Position numbers and translations under genes: made by a program. From the NCBI GenBank assembly GCA_036448795.1, contig JAZFXQ010000057.1, forward strand, positions 1 to 52,932: DNA of 52,932 nt, read 5' to 3'. Position 1 is the stretch's first letter. Each line of letters starts with the position of its first letter. The notes under the pieces are model-generated. The model worked only from the letters and a program-made list of their open reading frames with translations. It was not told where the DNA came from and ran no database searches. Shown here piece after piece: positions 7,918 to 12,917 of this stretch. This stretch comes from Candidatus Margulisiibacteriota bacterium. Lineage in GTDB: Bacteria; Margulisbacteria; WOR-1; O2-12-FULL-45-9.

Positions 7918-10605
7918 CTAGTTAACCAGATATCTTTGTCCGTAGATGGCTTTGCCTCCACTGGTGTAGTCTTCCCAGAAAATATAGAAACTGTTATCAG
8001 AAGAAGTTGCTAGGATTTTGGGGGCCCTTCCTCCATTTTTGCTTGAGATTTTGAATCCGTTTTCAACCCAAGCCGGCTTACCATCGCTCTTTATTTTCTG
8101 AATATAGAGCTCATAGTGTTTGCCGCTCCGGTAATCTTCCCAAGCAATTATGACACTCCCGTTTTTCCATGGGATAATTTGAGGAGCATATTGGGTATGA
8201 GGGATAAGCGCCACCGGGACCCCATCTTCTCCCCAGGGGAGCTTACCCGAGGGGTCTACTGCTGCAGCAAAAACATCCCAGTTCCCGTAACGATAATCTT
8301 CCCAGACCAGAATGGTTTTATTTCCGAATTTTGGATTCTGTTGGGTGCGGCTCAATTGGTTGAGAGGAATGCCGTCCCTCATCCAAATAGGTTGTCCGGA
8401 TTTATTTATGCGCTGGGCATAGATATCGTAACTCCCACCTCCCTTATCTGTCCAGGAGATGATTACTCCTCCTTCCCCATCTGAAATTAATTTGGGAGCA
8501 CGCTGGACATCCGGAGCCCCACAGACTAAAACACCCTCTTCATGCCAAAGGGCCTTCCCTTTGGCGTTTATTCTTTGGGTATAGATATCCGGATTTCTAT
8601 CTCCGCGGCGGTAGTCTGTCCAGGCTAAAATCGCTCCACCCGCTCCGTCCGGGAGCATGCTTGCATCAAGTTGGTTGCCATTTGCAGAAATGGCGATTTT
8701 GCCCTTTTTGCCCCACAGAAGCATTCCCTTTCCAGATACCCTCTGAGCGTAGATATCCTGAAGACTTAGGACGTCCCGATCATCCTGCCAGGCCACAATC
8801 GCCCCGCCCGCTCCGTCAGAAATCATAATCGGTTTGATCTGTCGGGATTTGACTTTTGCCAGTGAGAGGCTGCTTTCCCAGAGCTTTTTCCCCTTGGAAT
8901 CTAAGTGTTGTGCCCGAATGGAAGGAAATTCTTCAATGCGGCGATCTTCCCAGGCAATGATTGCTCCCCCCTTGCCATCCGGCACAATCTGCGGGTCAAA
9001 TTGATCGGCCGCGACTTTAGCAATCGCGATTCCATGACGTCCCCAGGCTAATTGCCCTGTCTTGTCTATTTTTTGCGCATAAATATTAAAAAAGCCAGAG
9101 CGGGCGTCTTCAAAAACTAAGATAATTTCCCCTTTACCATTCGGAATTAACTCAATGTTTTGCTGTACGACTGAACCATGCGCAGCGCAGACCACTACCC
9201 CAGATTTTTTCCAAAGAAGAGTTCCATCCGGTGAAATTTTTTGCGCGTATATATCATAGTTTCCAAAGCGGCTATCTTTCCAGGTCACAATTATATTTCC
9301 GGTTGGGGTTGAGGTAACTGCTGGTGATTCCTGTGCCAGACGATCTGAAATTATGAGAAGGCCACCCGTTTTCCAGAGAGGGGTGCCCGCACTGTTTATC
9401 TTTTGAGCAAAAAGGTCCGCTTTTCCTTTTCGGCTGTCCTCCCAAACCACAATCCAATCTTCGGTTTTTAATTTGACAATCTCTGGATTTCTTTGTTTGC
9501 CGAGCGATCTGCAGACCGGACGACCGTTATCCTGCCAGGCCACTCTTCCATCTTTAAAAATTCTTTGGGCATAAATATCGCTTTCTTCTGCCCGGTGGTC
9601 TGTCCAAACCAAAATTGTTCCCCCCGATCCATCCGGGGAGAGCTTTGGGTTTTCTTGTGAATAAGGATAAGAGCAAGCGCAAACCCCTTCCTTTTCCCAT
9701 TCAAGGTTTCCAGCCAGATCTATTTTTTGCGCATAGATATCGATGTTCCCTGAACGGGCATCGTTCCAGGCAATAATTGCGCCATTTTGAGTGGAAAGAA
9801 TGACCGGACGTTCTTGGTTAAGTTGAGCAGAACAGATTGGAATCCCATCCCTTTCCCAGAGGATCTTGCCAGAGGGATCAAGGTGCTGTGCAAAAATATT
9901 GTTGTCTGAGGAACTAATTCGGCCGTCGGCCCAAACGATAATTGCCCCTCCCTGGCCGTCGCTTGCGATTTTTGGATACCATTGCGTGCCGGGCGCAGTT
10001 GAAACCGGGATTCCATTTTCCTGCCAGAGGGGGTTTCCAGAGCCATCCAGTCTTTGGGCGTAGACATCTTCTCCTTTTTCGCTACGATAATCATGCCAGG
10101 TAACGAATGCCCCTCCCGCTCCGTCTGAAATTATTTCTGGGCCGAATTGTCCAGCGGTTGCCACGCAAACCGGGGTGCCGCCTTCACCCCAGAGCGTGTT
10201 TCCGGCATAGTTTATTTTCTGGGCAAAGACGTCTGAGTTTCCGTTTCTGTAATCCTGCCAGACAATGATAAGCCCCCCAGCGCCATCGCTGGTTATCTGC
10301 GGGAAGTTCTGGTTTCCAAAACGGGAGCAGGCACCTATCCCATCTTTTGCCCAAAGTAGCCGACCGGATTCATCGATCTTTTGAGCGAAGATATCATAAT
10401 AACCAGAACGACCATCTTCCCAGACAAGGATGTAATTCCCATGCCCATCACTAATAATTTTTGGATTTTGTTGTGGAGAATTGCCCGGAGTATCGTTGAT
10501 AAGTAATCCGTAAGTAGCCCAGAGGGCTTTGGGCTCTGCTGCATAAGCCGGCGCAATCAGAATTGAAACCAATGCAAAAATCAAGATGCATTTATGAATG
10601 TTCAT
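7918..10605 (-). CDS. secreted protein made of about 16 tandem ~53-aa repeats (beta-propeller-like), function unknown
   Basis: Signal peptide MNIHKCILIFALVSILIAPAYA|AEP, then repeats of the pattern P.I.SDG.GGAI.VW.D.R.G..DIYAQ.I...G..LW...G..V. The start ATG overlaps the smc stop (ATGA). Confidence 0.8.
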   Translation of the reverse strand: MNIHKCILIFALVSILIAPAYAAEPKALWATYGLLINDTPGNSPQQNPKIISDGHGNYILVWEDGRSGYYDIFAQKIDESGRLLWAKDGIGACSRFGNQNFPQITSDGAGGLIIVWQDYRNGNSDVFAQKINYAGNTLWGEGGTPVCVATAGQFGPEIISDGAGGAFVTWHDYRSEKGEDVYAQRLDGSGNPLWQENGIPVSTAPGTQWYPKIASDGQGGAIIVWADGRISSSDNNIFAQHLDPSGKILWERDGIPICSAQLNQERPVILSTQNGAIIAWNDARSGNIDIYAQKIDLAGNLEWEKEGVCACSYPYSQENPKLSPDGSGGTILVWTDHRAEESDIYAQRIFKDGRVAWQDNGRPVCRSLGKQRNPEIVKLKTEDWIVVWEDSRKGKADLFAQKINSAGTPLWKTGGLLIISDRLAQESPAVTSTPTGNIIVTWKDSRFGNYDIYAQKISPDGTLLWKKSGVVVCAAHGSVVQQNIELIPNGKGEIILVFEDARSGFFNIYAQKIDKTGQLAWGRHGIAIAKVAADQFDPQIVPDGKGGAIIAWEDRRIEEFPSIRAQHLDSKGKKLWESSLSLAKVKSRQIKPIMISDGAGGAIVAWQDDRDVLSLQDIYAQRVSGKGMLLWGKKGKIAISANGNQLDASMLPDGAGGAILAWTDYRRGDRNPDIYTQRINAKGKALWHEEGVLVCGAPDVQRAPKLISDGEGGVIISWTDKGGGSYDIYAQRINKSGQPIWMRDGIPLNQLSRTQQNPKFGNKTILVWEDYRYGNWDVFAAAVDPSGKLPWGEDGVPVALIPHTQYAPQIIPWKNGSVIIAWEDYRSGKHYELYIQKIKSDGKPAWVENGFKISSKNGGRAPKILATSSDNSFYIFWEDYTSGGKAIYGQRYLVN

Positions 10606-12842
10606 GTTACAGCCTCAGCCAGTTTCATAGAGATTACTTTTGAAACCCCCGGTTCTTCCATGGTAATGCCGTAGATGTTGTTTGCTACAGCCATGGTGCA
10701 TTTGTTATGAGTGATTACAATGATTTGGCTTTGTGAGGAGAAATCCTTGAGCATTTCTGCAAAACGGCCGATGTTGGCATCGTCTAGGGCAGCGTCAACC
10801 TCATCCAGAAAACAAAAAGGGCTTGGCCGAATTTTTAGTAGAGAAAAGAGAATAGCAATGGCCGAAAGAGATCTTTCTCCACCGGAGAGAAGGGGGAGCG
10901 GAAGCCACTTTCGGCCCGAAGGCCTGACAGAAATTTCGATTTCTGCTTCGAGAGGCGGGGCTTCCGGAGAAAGGGAGATCTTGGCTTCTCCGCCCTGGAA
11001 GAGCTTGGAAAAGATTTCTGAAAAAATCGAAGAGAGCTGTCGCATGGTATCTAAAAAGGCTTGTTCGGCTTTAAGATCGAGTTCCGTGATTAAGCTGCGC
11101 AGGTTTTCGCGCGCACCATTTAGATCTTCTAGCTGTGCCTCAATAAAGGAAAGCCTCTCTTTCCCTTTTTCAAACTCTTCGATAGCCAGGAGGTTCACCG
11201 GCTCCAGCGATCGAAGCTTTGACTTCATTTCTTCCACTTCTTTTTTTGCCTTTGAGGTGTTTGATGCCGTATAAGCAGAGGCCAGGGCTTCTTCCATGCT
11301 CAGATTGTATTCCAGAGAAAGCTTTTCGCTTATGGTATTCGTTTCCCCTTCCAGTTTAGCCAGGGCGATTTCAAGGGAAGATTCTTCGGTCAGGGCCTTT
11401 CGTTCGGCCTGACCCTCGGTTCTCACCTTTTCTTCCAGAGCCGAGATCTTTTGGGAAATCTCTTCTTTTTCCTGCCTCTTCTGAGCAAGGATAAAAGCTG
11501 CGGTTTGCTTGGTCTTGGCTTCTTCAACCTTCTCGGTCAGATTTTCAAGCTGGGAACAGTAGGCCTGCAGGGCAAATTCGACCTTTCCCTTTTCCTCGAG
11601 AACTTTCTTCCCTTCTTCCTCAAGCAGTTCCAGTTTTAGCCGATAGGTTTCTTCTTTCTCAGTCGAGTGACCAAGGCTAAGGATGAGCTTGCTTTCCTTT
11701 CCCAAGGAGGAAAGGATGGAGGCCAGTATTTCAATTAATTCTGCGGATTGTTTAAGGATTCTTTCGAAAAATTCTGCGAGCGGAATCTCGGCAAGGTCCA
11801 ACCCTTTTTTTTCCTGCTCCAGATCAGATCTTATTGCAACAATTTTTTCCTGCATTTTCTTTTCTTTTTCCTGAAGGCCGCTTAAGAATTTCTCTTCCCG
11901 CTCGGTTTCACTTTTGACAAAGCGCTGGTCGAGTTCGATGTCGCGCAAGCGATCTTTCTCTTCGTCAAGCTTGACCAGCCGCTCATCAATTTCATGGTCG
12001 ATTTTTCGGTGGACCTCTTTGAGCATCAGCAGCTCTTGGGAATCTTTTTCTTCAGTTTCTTTCTGAGCTAAGCTTTCTTTTTTTATCTTTTCCAATTCCT
12101 CAGTCAATTTATTTTTCTTTTCTAAAATTTGTTCAAGCACTCGCCGGCTCAGGCCGATCTCCAGCTCTTTTAGATGGGATTGGATTTCAAGATATTGCTT
12201 GGCTTTTCGGGCCTGTTCTTCCAAAGTAAGAAGCTGCTCGTTAACCTCGATTTTTAAATCGCTGATACGTAAAATGTTCTGTTCCGCGGCAATCAGCTTC
12301 TTTTCGGCTGCCAGTTTTCTGGTCTTATACTTATTGATTCCGGCCGCTTCTTCAAAAACCGCTCTTCTCTCTTCTCCCTTGCTGGAAAGTATGGCATCCA
12401 CCTGCCCTTGGGTGATGATGGAGTAAGTTCCCTCGCCCAGCCCGGTATCCAAAAGGAGATCCTTGATATCTTTTAAGCGGCATTGGTTTTTGTTGATGAA
12501 GAATTCGCTCTCTCCTTCGCGAAAAGTTCGGCGTTTGATCGAAACTTCGGTAAAAGGGACCGGAAGTTTTCCGGCCGAGTTGTCGAAAACTAGCGCTACT
12601 TCAGCCAAAGAGAGGGGTTTTCGAGAGGAAGTCCCGGCAAAGATGATATTTGAGAGATTGGCCACCCTGAGCTGGCGGGGATTGTCTTCTCCCAAAACCC
12701 AGCGCGTGGCATCCAGCAGATTGCTTTTGCCGCAGCCATTTGGACCAACGATGGCCGTAATCCGAGCATCTTCCGAAAATTCAATTTCGGTTGAATCGGT
12801 AAAGGTTTTGAAACCCCGCAGAATTAGGGATTTTAGAAACAC
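10602..12842 (-). CDS. smc: SMC-type chromosome condensation ATPase, unusually short (746 aa), with no recognisable hinge
   Basis: N-terminal head MFLKSLILRGFKTF..GPNGCGKSN..RWVLGE. C-terminal head has LSGGERSL (signature) and FCFLDEVDAALD (Walker B). Heptad-rich Glu/Lys arms lie between the heads. Confidence 0.8.
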   Translation of the reverse strand: MFLKSLILRGFKTFTDSTEIEFSEDARITAIVGPNGCGKSNLLDATRWVLGEDNPRQLRVANLSNIIFAGTSSRKPLSLAEVALVFDNSAGKLPVPFTEVSIKRRTFREGESEFFINKNQCRLKDIKDLLLDTGLGEGTYSIITQGQVDAILSSKGEERRAVFEEAAGINKYKTRKLAAEKKLIAAEQNILRISDLKIEVNEQLLTLEEQARKAKQYLEIQSHLKELEIGLSRRVLEQILEKKNKLTEELEKIKKESLAQKETEEKDSQELLMLKEVHRKIDHEIDERLVKLDEEKDRLRDIELDQRFVKSETEREEKFLSGLQEKEKKMQEKIVAIRSDLEQEKKGLDLAEIPLAEFFERILKQSAELIEILASILSSLGKESKLILSLGHSTEKEETYRLKLELLEEEGKKVLEEKGKVEFALQAYCSQLENLTEKVEEAKTKQTAAFILAQKRQEKEEISQKISALEEKVRTEGQAERKALTEESSLEIALAKLEGETNTISEKLSLEYNLSMEEALASAYTASNTSKAKKEVEEMKSKLRSLEPVNLLAIEEFEKGKERLSFIEAQLEDLNGARENLRSLITELDLKAEQAFLDTMRQLSSIFSEIFSKLFQGGEAKISLSPEAPPLEAEIEISVRPSGRKWLPLPLLSGGERSLSAIAILFSLLKIRPSPFCFLDEVDAALDDANIGRFAEMLKDFSSQSQIIVITHNKCTMAVANNIYGITMEEPGVSKVISMKLAEAVT

Positions 12843-12917
12843 CTTGCATTAATAATAACATAAAGCGAGCCTGAGCATCAACCCAGCAGCATAGTGGTGC
12901 TGGGTCAACTAAAGCAT

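Follow-up and report, generated by a model that had tools for sequence, protein, structure and literature searches.

A short-armed Smc protein without a hinge in an uncultured Margulisbacteria bacterium and its relatives

Results

Gene organization and family assignment

The smc gene lies on the reverse strand at positions 10602-12842 of the window (the whole stretch of 52,932 nucleotides analysed here), which belongs to the 77% complete MAG of an uncultured member of the Margulisbacteria (WOR-1/Saganbacteria). The open reading frame list and the translation give it a GTG start, a TGA stop and 746 aa, far short of the ~1186 aa of canonical bacterial Smc, as a preliminary description of this DNA had stated. 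Its stop overlaps the start of the next gene in an ATGA at 10602-10605 (reverse strand); this downstream gene (7918-10605) encodes a secreted repeat protein of 895 aa, and the same gene pair was also found in the relatives L091 and L096.

Both halves of an SMC-type ATPase head are present, and every motif that the preliminary description had quoted for them was recovered. The N-terminal half (aa 1-169; 12336-12842, reverse strand) carries the Walker A motif GPNGCGKS at aa 33-40 and the Q-loop residue Q145; FEEAAGINKYK spans aa 163-173. The head-proximal C-terminal helix and the C-terminal head half together span aa 552-746 (10605-11189, reverse strand) and hold the signature motif LSGGE (aa 652-656), the Walker B motif DEVD (aa 680-683) within the Walker B/D-loop stretch FCFLDEVDAALD (aa 676-687), and H712 as the H-loop. 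Residues G33-S40, Q145, L652-E656, D680-D687 and H712 were invariant in an alignment of 71 sequences, and mean column conservation was 0.87 for the N-terminal head half and 0.80-0.84 for the region from aa 552 to 746. The N-terminal half matched the Smc head structures 5xg3, 3zgx and 5h68 with E-values of 1e-104 to 1e-125, and the heads agree with solved Smc heads by fold as well.

Against the NCBIfam model TIGR02168 (SMC_prok_B) the protein scored 710.4 bits, above the equivalog cut-off of 567.35 bits, while the RecN model TIGR00634 gave 24.3 bits (cut-off, 407.85) and the Rad50 model 58 bits (cut-off, 700). The TIGR02168 match falls into two pieces, aa 2-361 aligning with model positions 1-359 and the C-terminal half with positions 834-1181, and ~470 central model positions, the hinge included, are missing. 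Pfam returned SMC_N alone (aa 2-734). Beyond the lineage, the closest sequences are those of canonical Smc proteins of ~1190 aa, at 35-47% identity. By its score, its bipartite ABC-type head, an arm with a joint, and the presence of ScpA and ScpB in the genome, the product is a bacterial Smc, one in which the hinge is absent.

Absence of a hinge and of a zinc hook

The hinge is regarded as a defining part of an SMC protein: the subunits dimerise constitutively through it, DNA has been proposed to bind or enter there, and the arm that transmits force ends in it. The SMC_hinge family PF06470 had no match in the 746-aa protein even at E <= 1 in the Pfam search, and profile searches found none in the MAG and none above the cut-off in 40 relatives. 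The translation contains five cysteines (C37, C121, C428, C677 and C715) with no CxxC among them, nor was a CxxC found in the centre of any relative's Smc; thus, the protein has neither a hinge nor a Rad50-type hook, as had been suspected from the sequence. A hinge remnant in the arm tip was also considered and rejected, as hhalign gave a probability of 0.2% for the tip profile against the canonical hinge profile of the phylum; an f3-type partial hinge was likewise rejected (0.6%). Because of these two values, the likeness between the F-G-K followed by a strand in the tip and the entry into a hinge is only an impression.

Arm, joint and tip

AlphaFold2 predicted arm helices at aa 170-345 and 394-614, the latter with a break at 513-551, forming an arm of ~190 aa (~28 nm) that is ~45% shorter than the canonical one. 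The N-terminal arm helix (aa 170-345, 176 residues; 11808-12335, reverse strand) was modelled as one continuous helix, with pLDDT values of 88-98 in the fragment model. The distal and middle part of the returning helix (aa 394-512; 11307-11663, reverse strand) was predicted as two segments, 394-444 and 448-512, separated by a break at 445-447, and is followed by the joint (aa 513-551; 11190-11306, reverse strand), a conserved interruption of the head-proximal arm that the model places between helices 516-520 and 529-546. Column conservation of the joint was 0.68, and aa 460-574 matched the B. subtilis Smc coiled-coil construct 5nmo, which we take to cover the Smc joint region. Global pairwise alignments place the deleted arm segments inconsistently within the coiled coil, and residue-by-residue mapping is reliable only for aa 1-257 and 458-746.

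In the place of the hinge, the arm ends in a tip (aa 346-393; 11664-11807, reverse strand) that AlphaFold2 predicts as a loop, a short helix and a second loop with an LxLxL motif at 386-390. The preliminary description had joined the two arms by ~30 non-coil residues; a joining segment does exist, but it is larger (~48 aa) and includes a predicted 24-aa helix. This tip helix (aa 356-379; 11706-11777, reverse strand) is a candidate dimer contact on the basis of column statistics over 66 short-form sequences, in which hydrophobic a/d/e positions are conserved at 359, 362, 363, 366, 369, 370, 373, 376, 377 and 380. Families f1, f2, f8, f10, f12 and f13 share a low-charge tip helix that leads into [FL]-G-[KQ]; some of the longer hinge-less relatives (f7/f9, 905 aa) have no obvious hydrophobic cap. 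The tip is the least conserved region of the protein (column conservation, 0.34-0.47). Its three-helix model had a pLDDT of 88.8, and a fold search with this model gave no match at E < 0.1; the hits above this value were helical hairpins of a generic sort, among them the p85 iSH2 domain and Rad50 rods. As modelled, the cap resembles neither a hinge nor any solved fold. A conserved hydrophobic helix is compatible with the RecN-like association of coiled-coil tips proposed in the preliminary description, and the far end of RecN reportedly mediates dimerisation according to structural work on the D. radiodurans protein.

Distribution and partner genes

A short form of 717-820 aa was the single SMC open reading frame in 14 of 15 relatives from the same family and in 14 of 15 from the same order, among them the closed genomes G016 and G017, and it was present in every family- or order-level relative from which the gene was recovered. 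More than 100 metagenome clusters of 736-761 aa with 58-82% identity, drawn from independent metagenomes, carry the same form. Neither the MAG nor any of the 24 relatives with a completeness of 90% or more yielded a second match to TIGR02168 or a hinge, and MksE/JetB was not found in 41 genomes. The short gene is the one and only Smc of this bacterium. The nearest relatives at the DNA level are ~72% identical in protein, and synonymous sites are therefore saturated.

The partners of Smc were also found. The MAG encodes ScpA and ScpB on a single contig (G000:C68) as well as ParB, and both ScpA and ScpB were present in 38 of 41 relatives. An apparent second ScpA in the MAG was discounted: the two copies, which lie at contig ends and are 89.7% identical, represent variants from different strains. 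In other families of the phylum, Smc and ScpB have been lost altogether.

A graded series of Smc forms

Within the WOR-1/Saganbacteria class, one genome (G126) encodes a canonical Smc of 1182 aa, family f3 retains the last hinge strands alone (~1000 aa), and the hinge-less forms measure ~1070, 984, 905, 850, 776, 746 and 716 aa. In the SMC tree, the short forms nest within the canonical Smc proteins of the Margulisiibacteriota themselves, and the canonical G126 sequence and the f3 stub forms adjoin the hinge-less f7/f9 forms. A single origin of all hinge-less forms was not rejected by the AU test (p = 0.104). Because of this result we do not claim multiple independent losses of the full hinge; our claim is limited to one full loss and one separate partial deletion.

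Discussion

The 746-aa protein is probably part of a working Smc-ScpAB condensin, its hinge-less dimer being closed by the cap together with contacts between the arms. In the WOR-1/Saganbacteria class, the protein has shed its globular hinge and, next to it, ~150 residues of each arm; it retains two normal head halves, the joint, an arm of ~190 residues and a small helical cap. Two such subunits may be joined at the far end by the hydrophobic tip helix and the short strand, which probably form a small bundle of helices, while arms packed side by side would add to the contact; ScpA would bridge the heads, ParB/parS would load the complex, and ATP hydrolysis would power the translocation of DNA or the extrusion of loops in the manner of canonical Smc-ScpAB. 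The architecture of the protein and its conservation across the class are observed, as are the lack of a further SMC or hinge and the presence of ScpA, ScpB and ParB; dimerisation at the tip and retained condensin function are what we infer.

With canonical Smc of Smc-ScpAB of the B. subtilis type (head structures 5XG3, 3ZGX and 5H68) the protein shares its head halves, its Walker A and B and signature motifs, its neck and joint, and its antiparallel arm, whereas the canonical hinge of 170-190 aa is replaced by a 48-aa helical cap and arms of ~340 residues by arms of ~190. B. subtilis grows normally when an unrelated dimerisation domain takes the place of the hinge fold (PMC5344682), and shortened arms function at certain lengths: in the functional constructs they measured either 253-267 aa or 321 aa and more (Burmann et al. 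2017, PMC5344682). The engineered Mini-Smc and Smc(Zh), the latter a hinge-to-Rad50-zinc-hook chimera, show that shortened arms and a non-hinge dimeriser can support Smc function, although each functional laboratory construct still had a hinge or a zinc hook (PMC5344682) and the natural 746-aa form has neither. Two aspects of the arm count against a working condensin closed at its tip: its ~190 aa exceed the natural mode of 163 aa but fall short of that of 238 aa, and they miss the length windows that are functional in B. subtilis. In addition, the low conservation of the tip, and its lack of resemblance to any known dimerisation module, speak against closure of the ring at this end.

The same two properties of the tip would be expected of an open-ended Smc, in which no tip dimer forms and the subunits meet through their ATP-engaged heads and ScpA, or a single arm acts alone, leaving a clamp or fork that holds DNA only in the head/kleisin compartment. 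The 905-aa relatives with no obvious hydrophobic cap also favour this alternative, as does the outright loss of Smc-ScpAB elsewhere in the phylum, a sign that the demands on the complex may be relaxed. We nevertheless consider it unlikely, since the a/d/e pattern of the tip helix, the [FL]-G-[KQ] motif and LxLxL are kept in six families and argue for a buried contact, and since every functional B. subtilis construct retained some dimerisation domain (PMC5344682). A further point against the main reading concerns the importance of the complex: because other families of the phylum have lost Smc and ScpB, Smc-ScpAB is dispensable in some relatives and its role here could be reduced.

Conversion into a RecN- or Rad50-like repair or defence ATPase that no longer organises the chromosome is a much weaker proposition, and we give it very little credence. 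The protein does share with RecN the lack of a hinge and a short antiparallel coiled coil, and with Rad50/SbcC an ABC head and a long antiparallel coiled coil with no globular hinge; the translational coupling of smc to an unrelated gene for a secreted repeat protein could also be read in this way. RecN, however, is not known to use ScpAB, Rad50/SbcC dimerise by a CxxC zinc hook that the 746-aa form lacks, and the bit scores place the protein above the Smc equivalog cut-off and below those of RecN and Rad50. Moreover, a new function would leave the retained ScpA and ScpB with no partner and the cell with no other SMC for the work of a condensin. Still harder to sustain is a decaying paralog or pseudogene, with a canonical smc hidden in the unassembled 23% of the MAG: the incomplete genome would allow it, but no short-form relative has a second SMC or hinge, closed genomes and those at least 95% complete included, and the frame is intact with strongly conserved heads and catalytic motifs invariant across 71 sequences. 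A collapse of the similar coiled-coil arms onto each other during assembly is effectively excluded: an open reading frame of matching length (734-760 aa) occurs in independent assemblies of every family and order relative, closed genomes included, and in the metagenome clusters, and the same length and tip sequence were obtained dozens of times by different studies using different assemblers.

Hinge-less SMC proteins are already known as a kind. A hinge-less clade from the ocean microbiome, annotated as Actinomycetes and described from predicted structures only, was first reported in 2025 (Environ Microbiome 2025, PMC12153180). That clade and the 746-aa form are alike in having SMC heads and a coiled coil, in lacking a hinge and a CxxC, and in being apparently the sole SMC; the present form differs in belonging to the Margulisiibacteriota, and this lineage adds partner genes, intermediate forms and the stepwise series to the oceanic case (PMC12153180). 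The nesting of the short forms within the Margulisiibacteriota Smc tree argues for a hinge loss separate from that of the oceanic clade, with which the comparison is by description only. A more far-reaching interpretation, which we put forward tentatively and would not favour at present, is that the class preserves a stepwise record of hinge loss (from a full hinge to a last-strand stub to none) accompanied by a shortening of the arms from ~350 to ~176-190 residues, and that the a/d/e-hydrophobic tip helix with LxLxL would constitute a previously undescribed minimal SMC dimerisation module, which would close the ring at an arm length offset from that of canonical Smc by about half a super-helical period.

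If the condensin reading holds, a whole bacterial class that has ScpA, ScpB and ParB runs on a hinge-less Smc with arms of ~28 nm. Its relatives with full, partial and no hinge form a natural set of constructs for the study of SMC mechanism, with which models of loading and loop extrusion can be sorted by whether they truly depend on the hinge and on a given arm length. The set also shows that loss of the hinge is recurrent in small-genome bacteria and goes beyond one oceanic clade.

Domain content and copy number of the short Smc

The smc gene occupies positions 10602-12842 on the minus strand as an open frame of 746 residues with a GTG start and a TGA stop. The SMC head motifs quoted in the preliminary description were all present in this frame, and the catalytic residues were invariant across 71 aligned homologues (Walker A G33-S40, Q145 and H712), as were the signature L652-E656 and the Walker B/D-loop D680-D687. 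Pfam returned a single SMC_N match bridging aa 2-734 and otherwise generic AAA models only; SMC_hinge (PF06470) was not found by Pfam even at E <= 1, and no CxxC occurred among the five cysteines, as expected from the claim that both a hinge and a Rad50-type hook were lacking. Against TIGR02168, the NCBIfam Smc equivalog model, the protein scored 710 bits (cut-off, 567 bits) in a two-piece match, residues 2-361 covering positions 1-359 of the model and the C-terminal half covering positions 834-1181. The gap between the two pieces therefore corresponds to approximately 470 missing central model positions, which take in the hinge together with the stretch of each arm strand next to it. The models for RecN, Rad50 and archaeal SMC-related proteins all scored far under their cut-offs. 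The hinge-less short Smc is a real feature, and the earlier reading is supported. At the start of the gene (12840-12860, minus strand), the GTG has no clear Shine-Dalgarno spacing, with only an AAGG directly abutting it; homologues start with ATG at the same MFLKSL position.

Neither a further TIGR02168 match nor a hinge was found in the source MAG (1.25 Mb in 185 contigs, 77% complete, the window being contig 57); the second full-length smc that had been considered was likewise not found there. When 40 relatives, including assemblies of one to five contigs (G016, G017 and G022), were searched for smc and hinge, every family- or order-level relative with a recovered gene had a single 744-803-aa open frame (stop-to-stop length) with the same two-piece TIGR02168 match, and a hinge above the Pfam cut-off was found in 0 of 40. 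In addition, over 100 clusters with lengths of 723-768 aa and identities of 58-82% were present in a collection of 5.8 billion proteins. Their sources were NCBI, JGI, ENA and Logan assemblies, and they bore the names Candidatus Margulisiibacteriota, Saganbacteria or candidate division WOR-1. An assembly collapse between the arms could not recur identically across so many assemblies and was rejected as the cause of the short form. Beyond the lineage, the closest cluster representatives were overwhelmingly canonical Smc proteins of 1180-1200 aa (35-47% identity), indicating that the short protein is a derived Smc and not another SMC-like family.

Predicted anatomy of the arm and tip

AlphaFold2, given the whole sequence and an alignment of 71 sequences (mean pLDDT 79), predicted an unbroken N-terminal arm helix (aa 170-345), a short tip helix of 24 residues with a loop on each side (aa 356-379), a returning arm helix with one small break (aa 394-512), the joint (aa 513-551) and a head-proximal helix (aa 552-614). 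Modelled alone, aa 296-450 gave the identical three helices (pLDDT 88.8; short helix, 84-88). With head boundaries set as in canonical Smc, the predicted head-to-tip segments measured 176 and ~207 residues, a mean of ~190 (estimate error, 10-15 residues) that corresponds by arithmetic from the model to roughly 28 nm; the canonical arm has ~340 residues and spans 47-49 nm (PMC5344682).

Conservation was 0.87 in the heads but 0.34-0.47 at the tip (aa 346-393). Nevertheless, at least 94% of the 66 sequences compared had hydrophobic residues at the a/d/e positions of the tip helix (359, 362/363, 366, 369/370, 373, 376/377 and 380); after the helix came a nearly invariant [FL]-G and, at 386-390, an alternating L-x-L-x-L. 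Three hydrophobic positions per heptad suggest that two or more partner helices bury the tip helix. This element lies at the centre of short-form proteins in six families (f1, f2, f8, f10, f12 and f13). No profile similarity between tip and hinge was detected (probability 0.2%), and when solved folds were searched with the tip model, generic helical hairpins were the top matches (best E, 0.3).

Partner proteins and gene neighborhood

Both scpA and scpB, for which a search had been proposed, lie side by side on MAG contig 68. Of 41 genomes, 38 encoded ScpA and ScpB, among them all 24 that were at least 90% complete; a ParB gene was found in the MAG, and an MksE/JetB-type subunit in 0 of 41 genomes. 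A second scpA match in the MAG was rejected as a paralog, being a strain variant at a contig end (89.7% DNA identity). The two versions of the region (contig 32, G000:C32:9405-9956; contig 68, G000:C68:1-553) are both at contig ends, and the doubling is strain heterogeneity breaking the assembly there, not gene duplication.

An ATGA at 10602-10605 overlaps the smc stop with the start of the next gene (7918-10605, minus strand), which encodes a secreted tandem-repeat protein of 895 aa. In two relatives from different assemblies, smc was likewise followed immediately by an 891-896-aa ORF (L091, 5241-7931; L096, 5238-7913); thus, the smc/repeat-protein pairing is conserved.

Graded hinge and arm reduction within the class, and Smc loss in the wider phylum

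A hinge was detected in only 15 of 146 phylum genomes, which were exactly those with a canonical Smc (frames mostly 1184-1224 aa). Within the class of the window, one genome (G126) encodes a canonical Smc (1182 aa), all others being hinge-reduced. The spacing from motif FEEAAGI..YK to motif LEPVNL took discrete values: 808-811 aa for canonical proteins, and 697, 622-625, 599, 532, 470-475, 395-403, 377, 360-372 and 341 aa for reduced forms. In family f3 (~1000 aa), the last, C-terminal hinge strands alone remain, with VMLNGDLIFSNGSLTGGS aligning to canonical VTLEGEFIPDYGTISGGS (hhalign probability 95%, E 2.7e-8); these proteins (loci L065 of genome G123, L005, L007, L059, L060 and L064; ~aa 460-530 of each) look like a natural half-deleted hinge. 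A 1133-aa Saganbacteria protein (P0118) is another partial-hinge form, matching hinge-profile positions 73-112 only. In the hinge-less family f7 (905 aa), two members are 115-165 aa longer (L066 of G129, 1070 aa; L063 of G131), and similar sequence blocks recur in the G129 arm, which suggests a secondary arm expansion by internal duplication.

A tree built from 644 well-aligned columns grouped the class at 100% support and placed G126 with f3, adjoining the hinge-less f7 and f9, while the other hinge-less forms made up a second clade with lengths stepping down from 984 through ~850 and ~776 to ~746 aa. The AU test did not reject one shared origin for the fully hinge-less forms as a whole (p 0.10). 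It can safely be stated that there was at least one complete hinge loss and one separate partial deletion, and that hinge losses were followed by progressive, matched shortening of both arm strands.

Across the phylum, 68 of 146 genomes had no TIGR02168 match at 1e-30. Neither an Smc homologue (E <= 1e-5) nor ScpB was found in four genomes of other families that are 92-95% complete (G045, G046, G052 and G059), which have RecN- and RecF-sized SMC_N proteins only. Several lineages of the phylum appear to have dispensed with Smc-ScpAB altogether, and from these four high-quality genomes the phylum as a whole seems tolerant of reducing the system. Separately, a Sphaerochaetaceae long-read MAG (L106, 2989-5815) carries an Smc-like region 52% identical to the 746-aa Smc and split into ORFs of 439 and 460 aa (~940 aa in total), which may be a frameshifted or shortened spirochaete Smc or reflect long-read errors.

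Proposed mode of action and comparison with known systems

The Smc ATPase of the lineage is intact and conserved, complete with neck, joint and short arm; the lineage has kept kleisin, kite and ParB, and a substitute condensin is absent. On the experimental precedent of B. subtilis, where cells grow normally when an unrelated dimerisation module takes the place of the hinge fold and where arms shortened to certain lengths are functional (PMC5344682), we infer that the 746-aa protein acts as Smc-ScpAB. The two tip caps would form a small helical bundle, the LxLxL segments perhaps pairing with each other, and the arms would zip into a rod, so that the ring would be closed but far smaller. The chief alternative is a complex with an open end, in which only the heads and ScpA hold the subunits together; closure through a tip bundle and zipped arms would be the most economical model. 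Natural Smc arm-length modes include 163 and 238 aa, and arms of 253-267, 321-373 and 407-435 aa are functional in B. subtilis (PMC5344682). At ~190 aa (+/- 10-15 residues), the arm lies between the two modes, outside the B. subtilis functional windows and ~1.5 super-helical periods short of canonical. As a lead only, this odd length could reflect a cap that connects the arms in another rotational phase than the hinge does.

None of the literature searched mentioned the SMC architecture of Margulisbacteria. An abundant oceanic 'hinge-less' SMC clade, annotated as Actinomycetes and without CxxC, was described in 2025 from predicted structures only (PMC12153180), and the Margulisbacteria Smc has this architecture, without hinge or CxxC, in common with it. 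The hinge-less architecture was therefore already known, and this lineage is a new member, apparently of independent origin. Its contribution is to show that ScpAB and ParB are retained, that the tip carries a conserved element, and that graded intermediates exist inside one class.
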